IMG/VR virus record: IMGVR_UViG_3300006143_000333
Coordinates: 64,959-128,958 of that record
Length of the DNA stretch: 64,000 nt
Direction: 5' to 3' (one strand)
DNA from: a virus
Taxonomy: Duplodnaviria > Caudoviricetes
Numbering within the stretch: the first letter of the stretch is position 1; each line of letters starts with the position of its first letter. A program made the translations under genes and the position numbers. Below, piece after piece: positions 6,469 to 16,509 of the stretch. The notes under the pieces were generated by a model. The model worked only from the letters and a program-made list of their open reading frames with translations, made no database searches and was not told the DNA's origin.

Positions 6469-6711
6469 ATGTTACAAACCTTTGAAGAAATGTGTGATAG
6501 CGAAGAGATTTGTAGTTATTGCTCTCATACAGAATATGGAGAATATAAGTCTGGTGTTACACCAAATGGATATTGGAGTTGTGAGGGTAGTTGGTGTAAA
6601 GACGCATATGAAGATTATTTAGATGAGAATGGAACAACAGATAATATTGTAAAATATGCAAGTGTTGTTAAATTGGTAAACAGGGAGGAATTTAATGGGA
6701 ACACCACTTAA
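6469..6711 (+). CDS. hypothetical Cys-rich protein
   Basis: SD aggaggtg; CxxC. Confidence 0.7.
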   Translation: MLQTFEEMCDSEEICSYCSHTEYGEYKSGVTPNGYWSCEGSWCKDAYEDYLDENGTTDNIVKYASVVKLVNREEFNGNTT

Positions 6712-7297
6712 ATTTGAGTTTGATTTTGATGAAGTATTTGAAGGAATCAAACAGGGTGTAATAAGAGAATTGTCAGAAACAAATTTTGATGAAGCCAAAG
6801 AATCAGCTATAAATCAGATTAAAAGTGAAGTAAAAGAAAAGCTGGCTCTTACATATAGTGATGAATATGCTTTAAAGGATGAAATTAAAAAGGAAATAAA
6901 AGAGAGAGTATTTGATAAACTTATTAAAGATATTGATGACAAATATTTAGAACAGTTTGAAGGTTACATAGAGTCACAGTTGACAAAGAATCCTGACAGA
7001 TTGGAGCAGTTAAAAAGAGAAATTAAAGATGGGTTGACTGAAAATCTATATGATGATTTATATCATTCTATTAAAGAAGAAGTGATTGGACAAGTTAGAG
7101 AAACGACTACTCAGTTATGTAATTTGATTGGTGGTAACAGTGTTAAAGCAGAGGGTTCTGATAGAACAATTTCTAAAAAGGAATATGAAGAGTTGATGGA
7201 TAGAAATAGAAAACTCAGTGCTTTAGAGGCTGGCGGTGTAGATAACTGGGAATGGTATAGTGAGTCTTTAAGTCAGTATTATGATGAAGAAGAATAA
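6695..7297 (+). CDS. hypothetical protein with C-terminal LEAGGVDNWEWY phage motif
   Basis: SD ggagg; conserved-looking C-terminus. Confidence 0.75.
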   Translation: MGTPLKFEFDFDEVFEGIKQGVIRELSETNFDEAKESAINQIKSEVKEKLALTYSDEYALKDEIKKEIKERVFDKLIKDIDDKYLEQFEGYIESQLTKNPDRLEQLKREIKDGLTENLYDDLYHSIKEEVIGQVRETTTQLCNLIGGNSVKAEGSDRTISKKEYEELMDRNRKLSALEAGGVDNWEWYSESLSQYYDEEE

Positions 7298-7315
7298 ATA
7301 AAAGAAAAATAGTAC

Positions 7316-7361
7316 AGAAAGGAACAAAGGTGCTGCAGCCGTGAGATGATCATACCTTTCT
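7316..7361 (+). promoter_or_regulatory. Leader element E1 (SD/anti-SD stem enclosing GCTGCAGC and ATGATCAT)
   Basis: agaaagg...cctttct stem; same layout as 8751 and 15451. Confidence 0.6.
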
Positions 7362-7373
7362 GGGTAAAGAAAA

Positions 7374-8261
7374 ATATTTGAGAATAATAATTATGAATTA
7401 TGGCAAGGTGATTGTTTGGAATTGATGAATGATATTCCTGATAAAACTATAGACGCAATAATAACGGATCTTCCTTTTGGGCAGACTGCTAGGAATGTTT
7501 GGGATATAGTAATTCCATTTAATGACTATATAAACTTAGAAGTCAGAAGGAAGCCAAAAATATTTTATAAAGATGATTTTCTTTTATGGTGTTATAAACA
7601 AGGAGAGACAGATTATAACGGAGCAGTTACATATTTTGAAGAAAATAAATCTATAGGATTGTGGACTCAGTATAAAAGAATTATCAAAGATAATGGTGCA
7701 ATTATTTTATTTGCAAATGGTATGTTTACTGCCGATCTTATGGAAAGCAATAGAGAGATGTGGAGGTACAATCTTGTCTGGGAGAAAACTCAACCTACAG
7801 GGTTTCAAAATGCTAATAGGATGCCAATGAGAAATCATGAGGATATGTGTGTATTCTATAAGAAACAACCAACATATAATCCTCAAAAAACAAGTGGTCA
7901 TATCAGAAAAGTTAGTACAGCTTCACACAAAAGAAATAGTAAGCAATCAACAAACTACAACGAAATCAAAAATCATACATATGACAGTACAGAAAGATTT
8001 CCTAAGTCAGTTTGGCTATTCGCCAAAGATACCCAAAAGTGTGCATTAACTCCAACTCAAAAGCCAGTAGCATTAGTAGAAGAAATTATTAAAACTTATA
8101 CTAATGAAGGTGATACTGTGTTTGATTCGACTGCTGGTAGTATGACAACTGGAGTAGCTGCTATTCGGACAGGTAGGAAGTGTATTTGTATTGAGAATAA
8201 CGAAGAGATATTTAATATCGGTAAAAATAGAATTACGGAATGTGTGAAAGAGAATAAATAA
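7374..8261 (+). CDS. N6-adenine/N4-cytosine DNA methyltransferase (beta class), probable ATA start
   Basis: YELWQGDCLELM N-terminus, TDLPF catalytic motif, PTQKP, FDSTAGSMTTG SAM motif; frame opens after TAA at 7365. Confidence 0.9.
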   Translation: MFENNNYELWQGDCLELMNDIPDKTIDAIITDLPFGQTARNVWDIVIPFNDYINLEVRRKPKIFYKDDFLLWCYKQGETDYNGAVTYFEENKSIGLWTQYKRIIKDNGAIILFANGMFTADLMESNREMWRYNLVWEKTQPTGFQNANRMPMRNHEDMCVFYKKQPTYNPQKTSGHIRKVSTASHKRNSKQSTNYNEIKNHTYDSTERFPKSVWLFAKDTQKCALTPTQKPVALVEEIIKTYTNEGDTVFDSTAGSMTTGVAAIRTGRKCICIENNEEIFNIGKNRITECVKENK

Positions 8262-8425
8262 AAGTATTCCGAAATGTTTTTTTAAGGACTATTGGATAGA
8301 GGTATTTCTAATGCCTTATGTATACGAGTTTGTCTATATAGAATGGGTGTGATATCCAATAGAAAGCCAATTTTATTGCAAGAAAATAAGGCAATCCGAT
8401 GACTGCCTTACCCTCTTAATGAACA

Positions 8426-8590
8426 CTACTTCTTATGTTTCTTCTTTTTGGACTTTGTGTTAATCTCAAAATCTTTGTATTTAATATGTAAGTTCCTGAG
8501 AACAAAGCCACTTACCAACACCAAGATTGATAGTGCCAAAATGACACAAGTAGGTGTCTGAAAAAGTTGAATGATAGATGAGATATTCAT
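8426..8590 (-). CDS. 54-aa single-TM basic-tail protein (antisense moron)
   Basis: RBS aaggagg; own promoter; hairpin at ~8384-8412. Confidence 0.7.
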   Translation of the reverse strand: MNISSIIQLFQTPTCVILALSILVLVSGFVLRNLHIKYKDFEINTKSKKKKHKK

Positions 8591-8640
8591 AGGCGCCTCC
8601 TTTTCAGGAGGAAAAATTAGCTTAATGTGTTCGTAAATAT

Positions 8641-8670
8641 AATTATAACACAAGTGACTAAAATAGTAAA
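8641..8670 (-). promoter_or_regulatory. sigma-A-like promoter TTTACT-17-TATAAT with extended TG
   Basis: Reverse complement reads tttact attttagtcacttgtgt tataat. Confidence 0.6.
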
Positions 8671-8750
8671 GAAATAGCAATGAAAATTTCGATTCATTGG
8701 TAGTTTAAAAGTAGAAGTAACAATTAAGCATGTGCGAAAAGTAATCAAAC

Positions 8751-8796
8751 AGGAGGAAATGAGGTTTCTGCGCAGAATAAATCATGATTTACTCCT
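8751..8796 (+). promoter_or_regulatory. Leader element E2 (SD/anti-SD stem enclosing CTGCGCAG and ATCATGAT)
   Basis: aggag...ctcct; aligns without gaps to E3. Confidence 0.7.
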
Positions 8797-8804
8797 AAAG
8801 TTAT

Positions 8805-9644
8805 TTGAAAGAAGAAAAGTACATAAAAAGTCCACTTAATTATGTGGGTGGAAAGCATAAATTGTTAAAAGAAATATTACCGCTATTCCCAAAGGATATT
8901 CACACGTTTGTTGATTTATTTGGAGGCGGATTTAATGTTGGTGTGAATGTAGAAGCAGAACATATTATTTATAACGATATATGTGAACCAGTAGTAAAAT
9001 TCCTAAGATGCCTATCTGGAAGCGATATTGATAAAATTCTTGCTGAAATTGATAAATACATAGAAAAATACAACCTAACAAAAGAAAATAAGGAAGGATA
9101 TTTGCAACTTAGAGAAGATTATAATAAAGGAACTAAATCCGCAATGAAGTTTTATACATTGCTTTGTTATGCATTTAATAATCAAATACGTTTTAACAAA
9201 AATGGCGATTATAATATGCCATTTGGTAAAGATAGGAGTAGTTTTAATCCTGCATTAAGACAGAAATTTATTGATTTTCATAAAAGGATTAATGTAATAG
9301 ACTGTGTATTTATAAATATTCCATTTGAAAGGTTTGATTTTTCGGAATTAGATAGCAAAGATTTTGTATATTGTGATCCGCCATACTTCAATAGTGTAGC
9401 AACTTATAACGAGCAGAACGGTTGGACTGAAGAACATGAAAAGAAATTGTTGTCTGTATTAGATGTGTTAAATGAAAAAGGCGTTAGATTTGCATTAAGC
9501 AATAATCTTAAATATGAAAATCCACTTTTGGATGAATGGAAAAATAAGTATAACATTCACTATTTGAATGGTAATTATAGCAATTGTAATTATCAAAAGA
9601 AAGATAAGAGTCAAGATATAGAAGTGTTAATTACGAATTATTAG
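8805..9644 (+). CDS. Dam/D12-class DNA adenine methyltransferase
   Basis: SPLNYVGGK, FVDLFGGG and YCDPPY motifs. Confidence 0.92.
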   Translation: MKEEKYIKSPLNYVGGKHKLLKEILPLFPKDIHTFVDLFGGGFNVGVNVEAEHIIYNDICEPVVKFLRCLSGSDIDKILAEIDKYIEKYNLTKENKEGYLQLREDYNKGTKSAMKFYTLLCYAFNNQIRFNKNGDYNMPFGKDRSSFNPALRQKFIDFHKRINVIDCVFINIPFERFDFSELDSKDFVYCDPPYFNSVATYNEQNGWTEEHEKKLLSVLDVLNEKGVRFALSNNLKYENPLLDEWKNKYNIHYLNGNYSNCNYQKKDKSQDIEVLITNY

Positions 9645-9666
9645 TCTTAAAACATCGGTTTCAAAG

Positions 9667-9812
9667 GGAGTCATTAGTTCATAACTGATGATTTCCATTC
9701 GAGAGATAGTTGCCTTACCAATTCTAACGACTCTCTTCAAACGGTAGGAATGGCGTTTACGACAGGTGGTAGTGAAGATCCTTCCTTGTACGAGAACAAG
9801 GGCAAACTACAC
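9667..9812 (+). ncRNA. candidate structured RNA
   Basis: Several nested hairpins in a ~170-nt intergenic gap. Confidence 0.35.
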
Positions 9813-9839
9813 TGAAATATAGAAAGGATAATTTAAAAA

Positions 9840-10091
9840 ATGAATAGAGATATAGGTGCTAAATTACCACAAACAAATTGTAGAACACCAATGCAACCTG
9901 TAAAGGAATTTGGTGAAAAAATTTGTGAGAATTGTGATAAAGAAGATGTGTGTATGTATAAAGAAGAGTGCATAAAAGCTATAAAGGATATTTTGGATAT
10001 CGAGAGTAGAACTAATGTGTTTATTAAAACACATATTGATTGTAAGAAGTGGAGTAAGAAGTCAAATATAAATGATATTGCTTACAGATAA
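9840..10091 (+). CDS. hypothetical Cys-rich protein, similar to 23557-23832
   Basis: RBS gaaagga; CxxC-x3-VCxY. Confidence 0.7.
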   Translation: MNRDIGAKLPQTNCRTPMQPVKEFGEKICENCDKEDVCMYKEECIKAIKDILDIESRTNVFIKTHIDCKKWSKKSNINDIAYR

Positions 10092-10118
10092 AATTTTCAT
10101 TTCAAAGGAAGGAGAAAT

Positions 10119-10379
10119 ATGTTTCAAAATATAGTTATTTGTGATAGATGTGGAGAAAAGGCAAATTTTTGTGGAACTTCCTATTATACAATACATATTT
10201 CTGCCCATGATATAAATCCGACTAATGACGGACGATTATATGTTGATACGGCAGTTCAGAATGTACATGAGAATATGAGTAAGATTTTTGGTAAAGAACG
10301 TCATTATTGTAAAAAGTGCAAAGAGAAAATAGAAAAATTTATGAGCGAGGTAGATGATGACAATAGAACAGAAAATTGA
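10119..10379 (+). CDS. hypothetical Zn-ribbon protein
   Basis: CDRC...CKKC; RBS aaggag. Confidence 0.75.
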   Translation: MFQNIVICDRCGEKANFCGTSYYTIHISAHDINPTNDGRLYVDTAVQNVHENMSKIFGKERHYCKKCKEKIEKFMSEVDDDNRTEN

Positions 10380-10614
10380 TTATATGATTCAGTCTTTACA
10401 GTTAGCAAAAGAAGAAATTACTTATGCAAAATGGTATACAGAAGGAAAAGAAAAAGATCGAAATTTTGATTGGTATGATCATCCTGGATATCAAAAAAGA
10501 AGTCCAAACGGAACAATAATAAGAGAATCATTAAAGATGGTAGGTAGAATGGCTAATATAATGGCAAATAGTATTTGTCTAAGCCCATATAATAAAAATT
10601 TGTATAAAGAATAA
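10354..10614 (+). CDS. hypothetical protein
   Basis: SD gaggt and open ORF. Confidence 0.7.
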   Translation: MMTIEQKIDYMIQSLQLAKEEITYAKWYTEGKEKDRNFDWYDHPGYQKRSPNGTIIRESLKMVGRMANIMANSICLSPYNKNLYKE

Positions 10615-10649
10615 ATCAACTCTTTCATTGAGAAAATAGGAGGGATGAC

Positions 10650-10895
10650 TTGATTGTTGGAGGATATGATACCGATGATTTGACAGATAGACAAAATCAT
10701 GTATTTCGTAAATTATATAACAATCCAGTAGCCAATAATAATCTATTAGCTTTGAATTTTCTATCTTATTCTGTACGTAAAAATTTTAGATGTAGAGAAT
10801 TTTATAATTATGAAGATGATTGTGATTACTTGTTAAGGATAGAAAAAGAAACATTAAGCAAATATGGAATAGATTTAAAAGAACTGTATACTTAA
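10650..10895 (+). CDS. hypothetical protein
   Basis: SD aggaggg, TTG start. Confidence 0.6.
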   Translation: MIVGGYDTDDLTDRQNHVFRKLYNNPVANNNLLALNFLSYSVRKNFRCREFYNYEDDCDYLLRIEKETLSKYGIDLKELYT

Positions 10896-10918
10896 TTAAA
10901 AGCACAAGGAGGAATCGC

Positions 10919-12206
10919 TTGAAAAGTAATATATTTATTCCCAAAACAATAAATGTAGGATATCAGAATCGTTCTGGTACATACACAGGAAAATTAGCTT
11001 ATGTAATTTATTATGATGAAAAAGGAAAGCTGCGGAAAGAAGCATCTTGGAATAGCTGGCGTGATGAAAAGATTCCAAATGAAGAATTTGATAATGTGCC
11101 AACAACTGGATTTGTATTAAATAAAAAGGTTGGTGATTATTCTTCGGGCTGGGATCATAGACAAGCATATTGTAGAGTGTATGATCCACGAAACTTTGAA
11201 TTTGAGATAACTATTGAAAATCTGTTGTATATTCTTGAAAATGCAAATTCCATCAAAGGTAAAGGGCTTGAAGGAGAATTTGTTTATGGATGGGATGGTA
11301 AAGACTTGGTGTTAATGCCGGTAGAGTCTCCTGATTATAAACAGATCACAGAATATAACAAAATTGTTCATAATAATGAGAGTATTAAAGCAAAAAGATT
11401 TGATTGTAGGAGCTACATATCTAACCAAAAACAATGAAGAAAGAATTTATTTGGGCAAATTTGATTATTACTCATATGGTTATAGGTGGTTAGAAGACGG
11501 AGAATATAAAACTAGTAAAAATTCAGATGATATACCGACAGAAAGTGGTAGTGGTTCTGGTTGGTATAGACATAAAATTTCGTATGATAGTATTGATTAT
11601 TTATATGGAAAATATTTTTGGTTTGCTTATAAATATTATGATTATGATTACGTTAATGGAGAAAAAGTTTATAGAGATAAATATGAATGGCATTTTGAGC
11701 AATATAAGAGTATATCAGCAAACAAATTTATTACTTGTGTTGATAATAAATGCACACAGGATTATTCAGATATTTATGAGTCTATGATCCGTACCAATCA
11801 TTTTTCACCTAGAGACTTTGATAATTTAAAATATATTCCATATTCTTTTGAAGAATTTAAAGAATATGCAGAGAAAACAGAAGATAGATACAATCGAGGT
11901 ATTTTTTGTAGATATAATACGAACTATTTCTCTGATAGTTATTGTAAATATGAAATTTCCTGTGATGATGAAACAAATTTATGGACAGTTAAACAATCTT
12001 ATTATGAGAATGATGATGATTTTTATGGCAGGTTTATTTTTAAAGATGAAGAGGTCAATAATTATTGGGGAAGTAGGAAAATTATAAAAAAGATTATTCC
12101 GATGACAATAGAAGAATTATATGAGAGGTTAAAACCTTGCTATAAAGAAATTTATTTACGGAATGGTAAATTATTTGGAAGGGAGTGCTACTATGGCAAC
12201 AAATAA
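10919..12206 (+). pseudogene. phage hypothetical gene split by a +1 frameshift at ~11392-11396
   Basis: Removing one A from gcaaaaagat joins the two ORFs as ESIKAKDLIVG. Confidence 0.65.
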
Positions 12207-12597
12207 TGATGAAAGAGTTTTACAACTAAAACAGGTTATTGATAAGAAGAAAACAGAACTAAAAGGATCAAAGAAGTTCACGCCACTTACAAATTGTGTC
12301 CTAGATTTAGAAGGGCAGAGATACAATTTGAATGTTCTCCAGTTTGATGATTTGCAGTTGTTGCTTGTTAGATTGAATATGTATTTAATGTCTGTTAAAG
12401 ATCTGGGAATCAGTTTGGAAGTTTCGGGGTATAACATTGTAGAATGGATTACGGATATCAAATGTAAGATTGAGATTTTCGAGTATAAGAAGAAAGAAGC
12501 AGAGCTGAAGGCATTAGAAACTAAATTGGACAAGATGTTATCTGATGAAAAGAAGACTGAATTGGAACTGGATGAGATTGCTGCATTATTGAATTAG
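12193..12597 (+). CDS. hypothetical coiled-coil protein
   Basis: SD gggag; overlaps upstream gene end. Confidence 0.75.
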   Translation: MATNNDERVLQLKQVIDKKKTELKGSKKFTPLTNCVLDLEGQRYNLNVLQFDDLQLLLVRLNMYLMSVKDLGISLEVSGYNIVEWITDIKCKIEIFEYKKKEAELKALETKLDKMLSDEKKTELELDEIAALLN

Positions 12598-12634
12598 TCT
12601 TGAAATTTTGCTTTCATTGAGTCAGGGGGAAGAT

Positions 12635-12907
12635 GTGGAAGAATTAGAAAAAATATTAAAACAGATGGCGAATCAACCAATACAGGTGCTTAAAGAGCCA
12701 GAAATTTATTACATAGTAAGTATCAAGGAAAGATATATTTATGACTTACATTTAACCACAATTACTAAAGAATTTTGTGGACGAATAGAGAATCAAACAA
12801 GCACAAGCATTTATTTTAGACTTAATGGAAGTGATGCTTTAGTAATAATTCCTCATAACTGGATTGAGTGGATGGCACCAGCAAAAGAACTATGGCAAGC
12901 AATATAA
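12635..12907 (+). CDS. hypothetical protein
   Basis: ggggga, then GTG. Confidence 0.6.
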   Translation: MEELEKILKQMANQPIQVLKEPEIYYIVSIKERYIYDLHLTTITKEFCGRIENQTSTSIYFRLNGSDALVIIPHNWIEWMAPAKELWQAI

Positions 12908-12935
12908 AAATAAATTATAAAGGAGAAAGAAATTT

Positions 12936-13487
12936 ATGAACAAGAAAACAAATTGGAAGTTACCGTTAATCATTGGAGCAGGTATTGTTGCTGTTATTTT
13001 ACTTTGTGTATTTGGTGTACAGAGTTCCCAGAACAGGGCGTTTGCTTTGGAGGAACAGGTAAACACAGCACAGTCGGATATCAAAGTTCAGGAGAAACGA
13101 AGAGTAGATTTAGTGTACAACCTTGCAGATTGTGTAAAGCAGTATGACAAACATGAGTCTGAAACTCTTACAGCCATTGCAGAGGGGCGTGGATCAGCAG
13201 GTGATATTGAAAATGTAACGACAGCTATTACAGCGGTTTCAGAAGCATATCCTGAGTTAAAGTCTAATGAAAACTATAAGCAGCTTATGAATGAACTGGC
13301 GATGACTGAAAACTTAATTGCAGAATATAGAAGTAATTATAATAAACAGGTCAAGGAATATAACAGATATGTAAAGGCATTTCCTACTAGAGTTTTTCTA
13401 AATATTCTCGGATATGAAAAGCAGAATTATACATATTTGGATTATGACGCACCTTCTGACGCACCACAAAATTTGTTTGGAGATTAA
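12936..13487 (+). CDS. LemA-family protein
   Basis: N-terminal TM, RRVDLVYNL, EAYPELKSNENY, YNRYVKAFP. Confidence 0.9.
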   Translation: MNKKTNWKLPLIIGAGIVAVILLCVFGVQSSQNRAFALEEQVNTAQSDIKVQEKRRVDLVYNLADCVKQYDKHESETLTAIAEGRGSAGDIENVTTAITAVSEAYPELKSNENYKQLMNELAMTENLIAEYRSNYNKQVKEYNRYVKAFPTRVFLNILGYEKQNYTYLDYDAPSDAPQNLFGD

Positions 13488-13489
13488 AT

Positions 13490-14236
13490 ATGAGTAGATA
13501 CAGTTATAGGAATCGTGGATTTGATTTTGGAGACTTTGAAATCACCAAGAGAGAAATTTTAGCAAGTATTTCTATTATAGCTGTAATGTTGCTTATTGGT
13601 GTTCTGATTTCTGGCAAGATTTCAGAACACCAGCTAGATGCAAATGAAGTCTATAACAAGGCAGTGAAAATAGATAATATAGATTTGTTTCAGTATGGCA
13701 TGGACACAAATGTAGGTAATGCGTTTGTATATGGTGATTTAGTGGCAGTTGACACAGTTACTTATCCTGAAATTGGCGGAGAGTATATGTATATTGAAAA
13801 AGTGAAGGAGAAATATACAAGACATACTCGAAGAGTGAAATCAGGGAAAACATATCATACACAAGTTTATTGGACGTGGGATAGAGTAGGTAGCGAAGAT
13901 AGAAAGTGTCAGGAAATTTCTTTTTGTGGAATTGCTTTTAATAGTAATAAGATTGATTTACCAAGCACAGATTATATAGACACTATCAAAGAATCAAGTC
14001 ATATCAGATATAAATATTATGGTGTTGGAACAAAATATACAGGAACCATATTTACAGATTTGAGAGATCAGACTATTTCAGATAATACTCAATTTTACAA
14101 TAACAAAAATATAGAAGAAACAGTTAAGCAGTTAGAATCTGGTGGTGGAGTGATTATATTCTGGATATTTTGGATTCTGTTGACTGGTGGTTGTGTGTTT
14201 GGATTTTATTATGCAGAGAATAAGTGGTTAGAGTAA
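13490..14236 (+). CDS. membrane protein (N- and C-terminal TM), coupled to LemA
   Basis: Two hydrophobic segments; 2-nt gap after LemA. Confidence 0.75.
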   Translation: MSRYSYRNRGFDFGDFEITKREILASISIIAVMLLIGVLISGKISEHQLDANEVYNKAVKIDNIDLFQYGMDTNVGNAFVYGDLVAVDTVTYPEIGGEYMYIEKVKEKYTRHTRRVKSGKTYHTQVYWTWDRVGSEDRKCQEISFCGIAFNSNKIDLPSTDYIDTIKESSHIRYKYYGVGTKYTGTIFTDLRDQTISDNTQFYNNKNIEETVKQLESGGGVIIFWIFWILLTGGCVFGFYYAENKWLE

Positions 14237-14278
14237 GGACTTAAAACCAGAGTTTCAAGGGAGATGGAGGTGATATAA

Positions 14279-15073
14279 GTGCTGTTTTGGCTTCAAAAAG
14301 AGTTAAATAATAAAATTGATATTGATACTACAATCCTACAGGAAGAACTTGATAAGCAAAAAATTAATCATTTGTATGATATTGGAACCATGAAAGATTA
14401 TGAGTGTATTTTGAATACAGATATGATTGAGAAAGAAAATTTGGAGAAAGTAATCCCTGTAGGTAGTCTTGATTTTGTACAAATGATTCTTTCTAGGATA
14501 CATAATGTCAATAATATGAATCCAATAGAAGTTCCAGATGTTCTTAGAGAAGATAGATTCTTGAAACGTAAATATTCCATTGTGCCTAAAAATAAACTTC
14601 CAAAGGAAGGATATTATTTCACAAAATATGTTTCAAAACTGAAAGTATTTAGCCATACAGGAATGATAGAGACTCTGCAATATACAGACGATGGTAAGGA
14701 ACCATTTCTGAAAGAAGGATTATATCAAGTATCAGAAGTGGTGGATATTTTATCTGAATATCGTTGCTTTGTACAGAATGATAAGTTGGTTGCTATAAAT
14801 TATTATGATGGAGATTGTACTGTATTCCCAGATGTCTCAGATATAAAAACTATGATTGGCAATTATATGAGAGATCAAGATAGACCAAAAGCATATACAA
14901 TGGATATTGCTGTAATTCGTAATAGTGGTACTGCAATTTTAGAAGTGCATCCGTGGGTAAGCGTTGGATTATATGGGTATATGTTTGGTGGTTCTCTTCC
15001 ATATTACTACAAAGATGGATTTGAATATTATATCAATTCTAATAAAGAAATAAAAGAATGGAGTAATTTTTAA
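14279..15073 (+). CDS. ATP-grasp domain protein (DUF4343/R2K-like)
   Basis: PVGSLDFV, SEYRCFV, YTMDIAV, ILEVH..SVGLYG. Confidence 0.75.
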   Translation: MLFWLQKELNNKIDIDTTILQEELDKQKINHLYDIGTMKDYECILNTDMIEKENLEKVIPVGSLDFVQMILSRIHNVNNMNPIEVPDVLREDRFLKRKYSIVPKNKLPKEGYYFTKYVSKLKVFSHTGMIETLQYTDDGKEPFLKEGLYQVSEVVDILSEYRCFVQNDKLVAINYYDGDCTVFPDVSDIKTMIGNYMRDQDRPKAYTMDIAVIRNSGTAILEVHPWVSVGLYGYMFGGSLPYYYKDGFEYYINSNKEIKEWSNF

Positions 15074-15085
15074 AGGATAGTAGAG

Positions 15086-15391
15086 GTGATTTTTATGAGT
15101 GAATATGTAGAATTACCAAAAGGTTATAACTTTGATACGGTATTTGATACTTATATTTTGGCGTTTTGTCCAGATACAGATTCATGGTTCGCTACTAATC
15201 AAAGGTTTTTCTATTATGAATACCAAAAGGAATTTAAAAGCGAATCTGAAGCAATAGAGTATTTTAAAAATAATCCAAATATATTTTTAGAACAAGAAGA
15301 AAGAATGAAAGTATATCGTCCAACCTTTTATGCTGAAGGAGTATATTTGGATAATACAAAAGAACTCATAAAAGTATCAATGAAAGGTTAA
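15086..15391 (+). CDS. hypothetical protein
   Basis: Open ORF with SD gaggtg; true start may be ATG at 15095. Confidence 0.7.
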   Translation: MIFMSEYVELPKGYNFDTVFDTYILAFCPDTDSWFATNQRFFYYEYQKEFKSESEAIEYFKNNPNIFLEQEERMKVYRPTFYAEGVYLDNTKELIKVSMKG

Positions 15392-15450
15392 TTTCATGGA
15401 ATAAAAATAGAAGAAATATGATGTGATAGTTGCAAATATCACAAATAAAA

Positions 15451-15500
15451 TTAGGAGGAAACGAGATTTGACTGGTCGATAAATGTACATTTGCTCCTAA
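15451..15500 (+). promoter_or_regulatory. Leader element E3 (SD/anti-SD stem enclosing GACTGGTC and ATGTACAT)
   Basis: ttaggag...ctcctaa stem; aligns with E2. Confidence 0.7.
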
Positions 15501-15507
15501 AAAGTAA

Positions 15508-16509
15508 TTGACAGACAATAAACATACACCAGAAGATTTAAAACGTCTTCAATTATATGATTTGGGTAACAAGATACAAATTTCTATTGCCAGAATCATG
15601 GAATGGTATAACAGAAACGATAAAAAATGTTATGTATCGTTTTCAGGTGGAAAAGATAGTACAGTTTTAGCATGGTTAGCAGCACAAGTTTGTAAATTGT
15701 TTGATTGTAAATTAATATTATGGTTTTCTGATACTGGTCTTGAATTTCCAGAATTGAGGGAACATGTAAAAACATATTCGGAGTGGTTGAAATTAACCTT
15801 TTCGATAGAAGTTGAAACTATAATGGACACTCCCAAAGATAAAAATGGAAAGAGAATAATATTTAAAGATGTGATTTTGAATGAAGGCTATCCAATTCTC
15901 AGTAAAAATATTAGCAGACAGATAGGAGATGTTCAAAGACTTGGACAGGATTGTTGGGCTGCAAGATGTTTTGATGGTAGAGAAACTGGAATGTATGATA
16001 TGAGAAGATGGAAATATGTATTGTCAGCTCCGTATAAAGTATCAAATAAGTGTTGTGAAATAATGAAGAAAAGACCAGCACATAGATTTACAAAATTATC
16101 TGGGTTAATGCCAATTATAGGAACAATGGCTTGTGAAAGTCGGCAGAGAAAAACAGAGTGGTTACATAATGGTTGTAATGCTTTTAATAAGAAAAATCCA
16201 AGTAGTCAGCCTATGAGTTTCTGGACAGAACAGGACGTACTGGAATGTCTTGTGAAATATGAAATTCCATATTCTTCAGTTTATGGTGAAATTAAGAAAA
16301 ATGAAAAAGGAGAATGGTACACGACAGGATATAACAGAACGGGTTGTATGTTTTGTGGATACGGTTGTCATTTAGAAAAAGAACCAAATAGATTTCAGAT
16401 GTTAAAAAATACTCATCCTAAAGTTTGGGATTATTGTATGAAATCAGTTGAAGATGGAGGATTGGGTATGAGAGAAGTTTTAGAGTATATAGGCGTCAAA
16501 GTAGAATAA
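15508..16509 (+). CDS. PAPS-reductase-family (PP-loop) protein
   Basis: SFSGGKDS, DTGLEFPE, KCC..MKK and RTGCMFC motifs. Confidence 0.9.
   Translation: MTDNKHTPEDLKRLQLYDLGNKIQISIARIMEWYNRNDKKCYVSFSGGKDSTVLAWLAAQVCKLFDCKLILWFSDTGLEFPELREHVKTYSEWLKLTFSIEVETIMDTPKDKNGKRIIFKDVILNEGYPILSKNISRQIGDVQRLGQDCWAARCFDGRETGMYDMRRWKYVLSAPYKVSNKCCEIMKKRPAHRFTKLSGLMPIIGTMACESRQRKTEWLHNGCNAFNKKNPSSQPMSFWTEQDVLECLVKYEIPYSSVYGEIKKNEKGEWYTTGYNRTGCMFCGYGCHLEKEPNRFQMLKNTHPKVWDYCMKSVEDGGLGMREVLEYIGVKVE

Follow-up and report, generated by a model that had tools for sequence, protein, structure and literature searches.

The second half of the 128,958-bp virus record IMGVR_UViG_3300006143_000333 of IMG/VR (Duplodnaviria; Caudoviricetes), which is about 71% complete, was analysed as a window of 64,000 nucleotides (nt) (G000:C1:64959-128958); unless stated otherwise, the positions given below are those of this window. 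Using a combination of methods (covariance models, pattern scans, protein-family searches, RNA folding and cofolding), we found that three genes of the window are each preceded by one copy (E1, E2 or E3) of a 46-nt leader, made of an outer stem that encloses two self-complementary boxes. The 5' arm of this stem is the only Shine-Dalgarno (SD) sequence of the gene, and the 3' arm is a copy of the 16S rRNA tail. The leader is an uncatalogued family, of the SD-sequestering kind with two unusual additions, namely boxes that would pair in trans and a reversed placement of the SD and the anti-SD. We propose, with a probability of about 55%, that it operates as a translational throttle, i.e. a cis-acting mRNA leader that controls the translation initiation of DNA-modification genes and in which the boxes of separate RNA copies pair with each other. 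The following lines of evidence lead us to infer the throttling of translation, the trans pairing of the boxes and the sign of the effect.

The three leaders lie on the plus strand, and each of them was found, letter for letter and with its 46 nt, where the original prediction had placed it. E2 (8751-8796) and E3 (15453-15498) belong to the main type and match the covariance models with 70-73 and 59-64 bits, respectively; E1 (7316-7361), of the divergent E1-type, is the third-best match of the genome (45-49 bits). The outer stem consists of AGGAG and CUCCU in E2, and of AGAAAGG (leader positions 1-7) and CCUUUCU (positions 40-46) in E1. Boxes 1 and 2 are GCUGCAGC and AUGAUCAU in E1; CUGCGCAG and AAAU-CAUG-AUUU in E2; GACUGGUC (self-complementary only via G.U) and AAAU-GUAC-AUUU in E3. 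E1 is followed by the 3' extension conserved in its type (7362-7376, plus strand), which ends in an ATA start codon (7374-7376). An identical copy of the E2 element occurs at 12 other loci, an identical copy of E3 precedes the orthologous gene at six loci, and about 20 relatives of the E1-type are present in other phages and in prophages. The 46-nt consensus of E2 and E3 occurs twice in the window, has no further occurrence in the rest of the 128,958-bp record, and is absent from shuffled sequences. Run on the genome, a first covariance model (ten members) returned E2, E3 and then E1 (45 bits), with no further match. A second, broader model (55 hits) added a fourth leader (G000:C1:56197-56242), located 8.7 kb before the window, which precedes another N6/N4 methyltransferase gene with a TTG start. 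The covariance models thus confirmed a single family, E1 being recovered and a fourth copy added. The earlier statement that the leader stands only before three genes holds as to its confinement to DNA-modification genes, but not as to the number, owing to this fourth copy outside the window. Within one genome, every leader has different boxes.

The genes downstream of the leaders, all on the plus strand, have the identities that the original prediction had given them. E1 precedes an N6/N4 DNA methyltransferase gene (7374-8261; Pfam PF01555, E 5e-28; adenine-specific methyltransferase families of NCBIfam), the start of which is probably ATA. E2 precedes a Dam-family (D12) adenine methyltransferase gene (8805-9644; PF02086, E 3e-40; TIGR00571 dam, above cut-off), which starts at a TTG located 9 nt past the leader, without a local SD. 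E3 precedes a gene of the PAPS-reductase/PP-loop family (15508-16509; PF01507, E 3e-16; phrog_424, E 4e-47), the TTG start of which is 10 nt past the leader and the product of which is probably a DNA-modification enzyme. In the whole genome, the Pfam models detected three methyltransferase genes (two N6/N4, one D12 and no C5), all three with a leader, and the remaining one of the four leaders serves the PAPS-reductase-like gene. Similarly, in five related phage records all leaders precede methyltransferase genes and all detectable methyltransferase genes carry a leader. Two of these genes were seemingly leaderless, and reading the DNA upstream of them revealed divergent leaders, one of the E1-type (boxes GUAGCUAC and CCAUAUGG, ATA start) and the other of another variant. 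At about 100 loci, the downstream genes encode N6/N4, D12 and C5 methyltransferases, a small methyltransferase (phrog_11619), PAPS-reductase-like, radical-SAM and SNF2/DEAD helicase proteins, and one unknown fragment; they are of the DNA-modification type, not random genes. This exclusive association strongly supports the view that the leader is a shared regulator specific to DNA-modification genes.

The leader and the first codons move as a portable unit. In two phages, an identical upstream sequence with its leader is followed by different genes, Dam in one and N6/N4 in the other. In another case, the leader and the first 8 nt of the open reading frame (ORF) are common to an N6/N4 methylase gene and a helicase gene, the sequences of which diverge thereafter. 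Conservation ends equally sharply at the 5' edge of the leader.

The family was assembled from viral, metagenome and Lachnospiraceae prophage DNA, and comprises 47 distinct members, 43-48 nt long, which fall into about seven subtypes. Scanning IMG/VR for an exact pattern made of the constant parts of E2 and E3 gave 14 loci, a looser pattern retrieved further members with altered outer arms, and a metagenome scan yielded 38 additional members. Eight prophages were retrieved by scanning species genomes, of which seven reside in Lachnospiraceae or a Roseburia, and the leader was present in 2 of 151 sampled Lachnospiraceae genomes. With the first covariance model, the five related phage records (120-165 kb) showed one to four leaders each, grouped in methylase islands. 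The leader is restricted to this phage lineage, a group of gut Lachnospiraceae phages. The stretch covered by the window is present in mouse-gut DNA runs of several studies, and has no megablast match, i.e. no close relative, among the deposited phage genomes. The leader matches no known Rfam family. Searched at the gathering thresholds of Rfam 15, the whole window gave no match; at permissive E-values, the region 7200-15700 gave four chance-level matches, none of them on a leader. No description of this leader came from full-text literature searches or from two large motif surveys of bacterial RNA.

The outer stem is real, judging from its co-variation. Positions 1-5 and 42-46 are paired in 98% of the alignment cells. 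In the E1-type, GC has become AU at two positions, with both arms changed; some members show G.U intermediates, and UA replaces AU in one prophage. The co-variation first seen as aggag/ctcct in two leaders and agaaagg/cctttct in the third extends across the 47 distinct members. The 5' arms are always SD-like (AGGAG, GGGAG, AGGGAG or AGAAAGG), with predicted pairing energies to the 16S tail of -5.9 to -9.8 kcal/mol. The 3' arms, CUCCU and CCUUUCU, are what we take to be stretches of the canonical 3' tail of the 16S rRNA (the reference being this canonical tail, not the rRNA of the host). CCUUUCU is the extreme 3' end of the 16S rRNA in Firmicutes.

Between the end of the 3' arm and the start codon there are 8-10 nt in the main types and 11-12 nt in the E1-type. 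This arm occupies the normal place of an SD, so that an anti-SD-like strand, not an SD, adjoins the start codon, and the SD-like 5' arm begins 54-58 nt and ends 48-52 nt before the start. Local SD energies, calculated for the pairing of the 17 nt before the start with the 16S tail, are -3.7, -0.5 and +0.1 kcal/mol for the genes behind E1, E2 and E3 (-0.5, +0.1, -3.6 and -3.7 kcal/mol for the four leader genes), as compared with a genome median of about -7.6 that rests on crude gene calls. These values bear out the earlier observation that the only good SD lies about 50 nt upstream of a weak start (ATA 7374, TTG 8805 and TTG 15508) and can pair with an anti-SD. Since the local SD is absent at the start, the 5' arm would have to serve both the ribosome and the 3' arm, and the message would therefore compete with the ribosome for its own SD. 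A second purine tract (positions 11-16) was considered as a general switch through pairing with the 3' arm, and was rejected: it offers six pairs in the E1-type and only three to four elsewhere.

The leader genes start with ATG, TTG, GTG or ATA. In the E1-type, the same G-rich/A-rich tail followed by ATA (once ATT) stands before at least three different methyltransferase families, an in-frame stop separates the leader from the ATA in several phages, and no ATG, GTG or TTG precedes the conserved N-terminus of the catalytic domain. In one D12 family, the sequence reads ATA-AAA-TAC-GTT-GGA, versus ATG-AAA-TAC-GTT-GGT in homologues placed behind another leader type, i.e. the N-terminus MKYVGSK is conserved except that its ATG has become ATA. 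Hence, the gene behind E1 most likely starts at ATA 7374, as had been guessed from its sequence. Three other explanations of these starts were discarded. A sequencing error at the E1 gene is at odds with the ATG-less layout being conserved in more than ten phages. A leader peptide with reinitiation could use the ATG and short frame held by box 2 of E1-E3, but relatives with CCGG, GCGC or AGCU cores have no ATG. A programmed frameshift or bypass into the methylase frame fails at E3, where the frames do not overlap, and at E2, where the landing-codon logic does not work.

Box 1 is an 8-mer that can often be extended to 12 nt, and box 2 is a 4-nt core set in conserved A/U arms (12 nt in total). 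Their sequences turn over, with at least 14 box-1 words and at least 12 box-2 cores, and otherwise identical leaders differ by CAUG to CCGG, by UGCA via UGCG to CGCG, or by UGCA to UAUA. The central adjacent pair, examined in the 47 distinct sequences (94 cases), is Watson-Crick in 87 cases, G.U in six and other in one. Among the distinct even-length 4-nt cores, 23/24 are self-complementary, for a chance expectation of about 14%. The departures from symmetry are sense-strand G.U in 30 cells, versus A.C in one to three; examples are the core CUGG (in three contexts), UGCG, GGUCGGCC, GACUGGUC, CUGUGCAG, GUUGUAAC and U.G at stem ends. The claim that the inner palindromes change and yet stay symmetric therefore stands across the 47 members, with the correction that box 1 of E3 (GACTGGTC) is no DNA palindrome, being self-complementary as RNA only, via G.U. 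From the sense-strand G.U bias and the words that are not DNA palindromes, it appears that the boxes act as RNA and not as DNA sites. It is worth noting that adjacent bases cannot pair within one strand, so that the central co-variation is left unexplained by a hairpin and is explained by the pairing of two strands.

Folded as a single molecule, the RNAalifold consensus contains only the outer stem (-2.9 kcal/mol), and cis hairpins of the boxes have only four, mostly A-U, pairs. Cofolding favours dimers over two monomers by 12-19 kcal/mol, and the outer stems then form between the two molecules. We propose that the 3' arm, as a copy of the 16S tail, pairs with the 5' arm and thereby hides the only SD of the gene, and that the closed stem and the weak starts (TTG, GTG, AUA) would together keep the output low. 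Closure of the outer stem would be marginal in a single molecule. The boxes, too short for stable intramolecular hairpins, would pair between two RNA copies, and two independent boxes per molecule would allow a dimer or chains. According to the folding model, pairing in trans would strongly stabilise the closed, SD-hidden state, and translation would fall further as the message accumulates. More tentatively, the leader may be an RNA-only concentration sensor, in which the boxes dimerise or chain messages and only then is the SD arm firmly locked; the output would be self-limiting, and the turnover of the boxes would prevent cross-pairing between the leaders of different genes and phages. The opposite polarity, where the dimer is the active form, is possible. 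Of the four mechanisms that the original prediction had listed, the one with which the comparative data agree best is the palindrome-mediated RNA dimer, owing to the sense-strand G.U pairs and the adjacent central bases, the dimer step itself being predicted from them.

Several observations weigh against the translational throttle. Single-sequence folds are no more stable than shuffles (z about -1), and because these energies are unremarkable the support for the leader structure is comparative. Many of the 47 sequences are closely related, and the counts exceed the number of independent events. The pairing of both boxes in trans within one dimer would give a knotted topology. The model offers no route by which a 30S subunit held at an SD about 50 nt upstream would reach the start, the spacing in the folded leader still being 14-15 nt. 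Two subtypes have an odd-length box 2 (central CAG or CUG), which fits hairpins with 3-4 nt loops equally well, and in the fourth copy the centre of box 1 is mismatched, which suits a hairpin as well as a dimer. Finally, a transcription-linked mutation bias could inflate the sense-strand C-to-U and A-to-G changes.

Some of these points would suit a monomeric leader, i.e. a three-way junction acting as a split ribosome-binding site, where box hairpins bring the distant SD near the start, the outer stem tunes access, and the palindromic loops are incidental or provide a tertiary contact. The distance of about 50 nt between SD and start, with a foldable insert in between, agrees with such a site; so do the odd-length variants with CAG or CUG centres, and the co-variation of the box stem positions (e.g. 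AAAU/AUUU to AAGG/CCUU and AAAG/CUUU). We nevertheless regard it as unlikely: the co-variation shows the SD arm to be paired, not free; the hairpins amount to four weak pairs and do not appear in the predicted consensus fold; the loop bases, including adjacent ones, are selected for a self-complementarity that a hairpin does not need; and even full folding leaves 14-15 nt between SD and start. The T4 genes 38 and 25 have split (discontinuous) ribosome-binding sites. They resemble the leader genes in being phage genes with an SD far upstream of the start and a folded RNA insert between the two. They differ in that the T4 SD is single-stranded and a hairpin restores the normal spacing, whereas here the SD arm is paired to a 16S-tail mimic, the spacing is 14-15 nt (normally 5-9 nt), and the insert consists of two self-complementary boxes instead of one stable hairpin. 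Alternatively, the leader could be the operator of a trans-acting partner, either a phage or host protein (Com-like) or a ligand (e.g. a riboswitch for S-adenosylmethionine (SAM) or S-adenosylhomocysteine (SAH)), which would bind the junction to open or close the SD stem. Conservation is high in the purine-rich joining strand (positions 6-15) and in the bases next to the boxes, and most of the downstream enzymes use SAM. A translational hairpin already known to control a DNA-modification gene is that of mom in phage Mu, where the translation-inhibiting stem is opened in a Com-dependent manner and transcription is Dam-dependent. As in mom, a phage DNA-modification gene would here be tightly controlled post-transcriptionally by a stem hiding the translation start region; unlike mom, there is no sequence or structure similarity, one leader family serves many unrelated genes, and no Com-like gene travels with the leader. 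Indeed, we found no gene travelling with it and no ORF co-occurring consistently across the leader-bearing loci; a zinc-ribbon-like ORF (10119-10379), considered as a Com-like activator, was rejected for having no homologue in the other leader-bearing loci. Moreover, two types of downstream gene (PAPS-reductase-like and helicase) make no use of SAM, the joining strand that is conserved resembles an SD and not a pocket, and the self-complementary boxes are left unexplained, which makes a trans-acting partner improbable. A riboswitch, though possible, received no positive support, there being no match to the SAM/SAH riboswitches or to any other Rfam family. An enzyme-bound target mimic, another of the mechanisms first listed, is unlikely, as one leader type serves D12, beta-class N6/N4, C5, PAPS-reductase-like, radical SAM and helicase genes.

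An element that acts as DNA, either as palindromic sites for a protein or an enzyme (a methylation-sensing switch or an operator) or as a recombination site marking exchangeable cassettes, would account for most boxes being perfect DNA palindromes, and for the same leader being joined to different modification genes with exchange at its 3' edge. It is nonetheless highly improbable. Several boxes are self-complementary as RNA only (cores CUGG and UGCG; GGUCGGCC; GUUGUAAC), and these exceptions are strongly one-stranded; near-identical methylase genes have different boxes and one box type precedes unrelated enzymes. These same facts disfavour the methylation-sensing DNA switch put forward at the outset, and distinguish the leader from C-box and methylation-sensing operators, since its box sequence is not tied to the adjacent enzyme. 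In addition, the leader always points the same way and stays 8-12 nt from the start codon, its arms form an SD/anti-SD pair, and ordinary homologous recombination in the conserved leader explains the gene exchange. The attC sites of integrons lie at the 3' end of a cassette and come with a linked integrase, whereas the leader lies at the 5' end of the gene. Many further occurrences of the box words are present in the genome (GATC, 213 counts; CATG, 319; GTAC, 237), and boxes as unique restriction sites were rejected, the same 4- and 6-mers being frequent. The resemblance of the box-2 cores to classic restriction-modification sites, which had been pointed out, is therefore uninformative, because nearly every short palindrome is the site of some enzyme and such words abound in the genome. 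The PeSL cassettes of T4-type phages, which combine a promoter with a terminator-like stem-loop, are similar in that a short conserved regulatory module bounds accessory genes shuffled between related phages, and dissimilar in that PeSLs are not tied to one functional gene class or to a translation start.

The translational throttle that we favour shares with the known SD-sequestering operators (riboswitch platforms, ROSE and fourU thermometers) a covarying SD/anti-SD stem within one mRNA. In those operators the SD is 5-10 nt before the start, whereas here the anti-SD strand takes this place and the SD is 50 nt away, with no evident ligand or temperature logic. In HIV-1 SL1 and other retroviral kissing loops, as in the leader, self-complementary words change between lineages and yet stay self-complementary. 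The differences are that the inner boxes have no real stem-loop frame (at most four weak pairs and a 4-nt loop, as against a loop of about 9 nt on a stable stem in the retroviral elements), which makes an extended duplex likelier than a kissing loop, and that the leader stands beside a start codon in a phage mRNA and not in a packaged genome, its dimer being predicted by thermodynamics only. A closer likeness to SL1 is provided by a hairpin located on the plus strand 10 nt upstream of E3 (15422-15443; 7-bp stem; loop G-UUGCAA-A), which presents a purine-flanked self-complementary hexamer in an 8-nt loop on a covarying stem. In relatives, the loop is constant on four different stems, one of them with a G.U pair, and this is the only strong hairpin of its kind in the genome. 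Similarly, an extra self-complementary 8-mer, GCAUGUGC, with a central U.G (8728-8735, plus strand), is located 15 nt upstream of E2; the relatives have GCAUAUGC or ACAUAUGU at this position, including a compensatory change. The hairpin and the 8-mer suggest that transcripts begin upstream of the leader. A -10-like word is found 6-10 nt before many leaders, inconsistently between types, and hints that transcripts may start near the first base of the leader. A scan for sigma-70 promoters and terminators gave matches no commoner than in shuffles. A contig from one metatranscriptome library matches 8754-9001 (E2 with ~200 nt of the 5' end of the Dam gene) with zero mismatches, which is weak evidence and no proof of transcription. 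The other RNA-library contigs are mostly relatives with 90-95% identity, from libraries that may hold DNA, and say nothing on transcript ends or levels.

Regarding the neighbourhood of the leaders, a 200-amino-acid (aa) ORF lies directly upstream of E1 (6695-7297), and its C-terminus matches the family of the RecBCD inhibitor gp5.9 of phage T7 (PF25708, E 1.9e-16); this proximity points to an anti-defence island. Between the E1 gene and E2, the minus strand carries a small hydrophobic ORF (8426-8612) with a strong SD and an ATG near 8593, beside which there is a short inverted repeat (CCTCC-N6-GGAGG, around 8597-8612). Because this ORF is on the opposite strand, E2 must have its own promoter. 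The Dam gene is followed by a gene-free stretch of 195 nt (9645-9839), which by eye looks G+C-richer than its surroundings and begins with an inverted repeat (TAAAA-N6-TTTCA); repeats of this sort are also located behind the stops at about 12598 and 14237, with no Rfam match. The zinc-ribbon-like ORF (10119-10379) has 86 aa and two CxxC pairs. An ORF (10919-11437) overlaps another one (11364-12206) in a different frame, a layout also seen by tblastn in several related phages, and contigs of relatives in two runs have one base fewer at 11392, within a run of five A; a frameshifted gene, an assembly error or programmed slippage may account for this. Genes of the LemA family (12936-13487) and of the R2K clade of ATP-grasp proteins (14279-15073) are located between the Dam gene and the PAPS-reductase-like gene. 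No tRNA gene was found within the window. In one relative (L069:1640-3553), the N6/N4 methyltransferase behind a main-type leader has 638 aa instead of about 295, the additional residues starting with a cysteine that directly follows the catalytic DVPY motif, and suggesting an intein or some other insertion.

The orphan methyltransferases of phages are a main escape route from host restriction, and what sets their expression has been worked out in only a few model phages. In the present mouse-gut phage lineage, every DNA-modification gene, whatever the enzyme family, would be governed by a single small, portable RNA module acting with the start codon. The conserved AUA starts, and a 16S-tail mimic in the place of the SD, are unusual features for research on translation initiation. 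Our literature search found no description of control via such self-pairing leader boxes. If the boxes do pair between molecules, a bacterial-virus message would here be regulated through its self-association, which is rare, and the leader would offer a compact natural part for dose-limited gene expression in Firmicutes.

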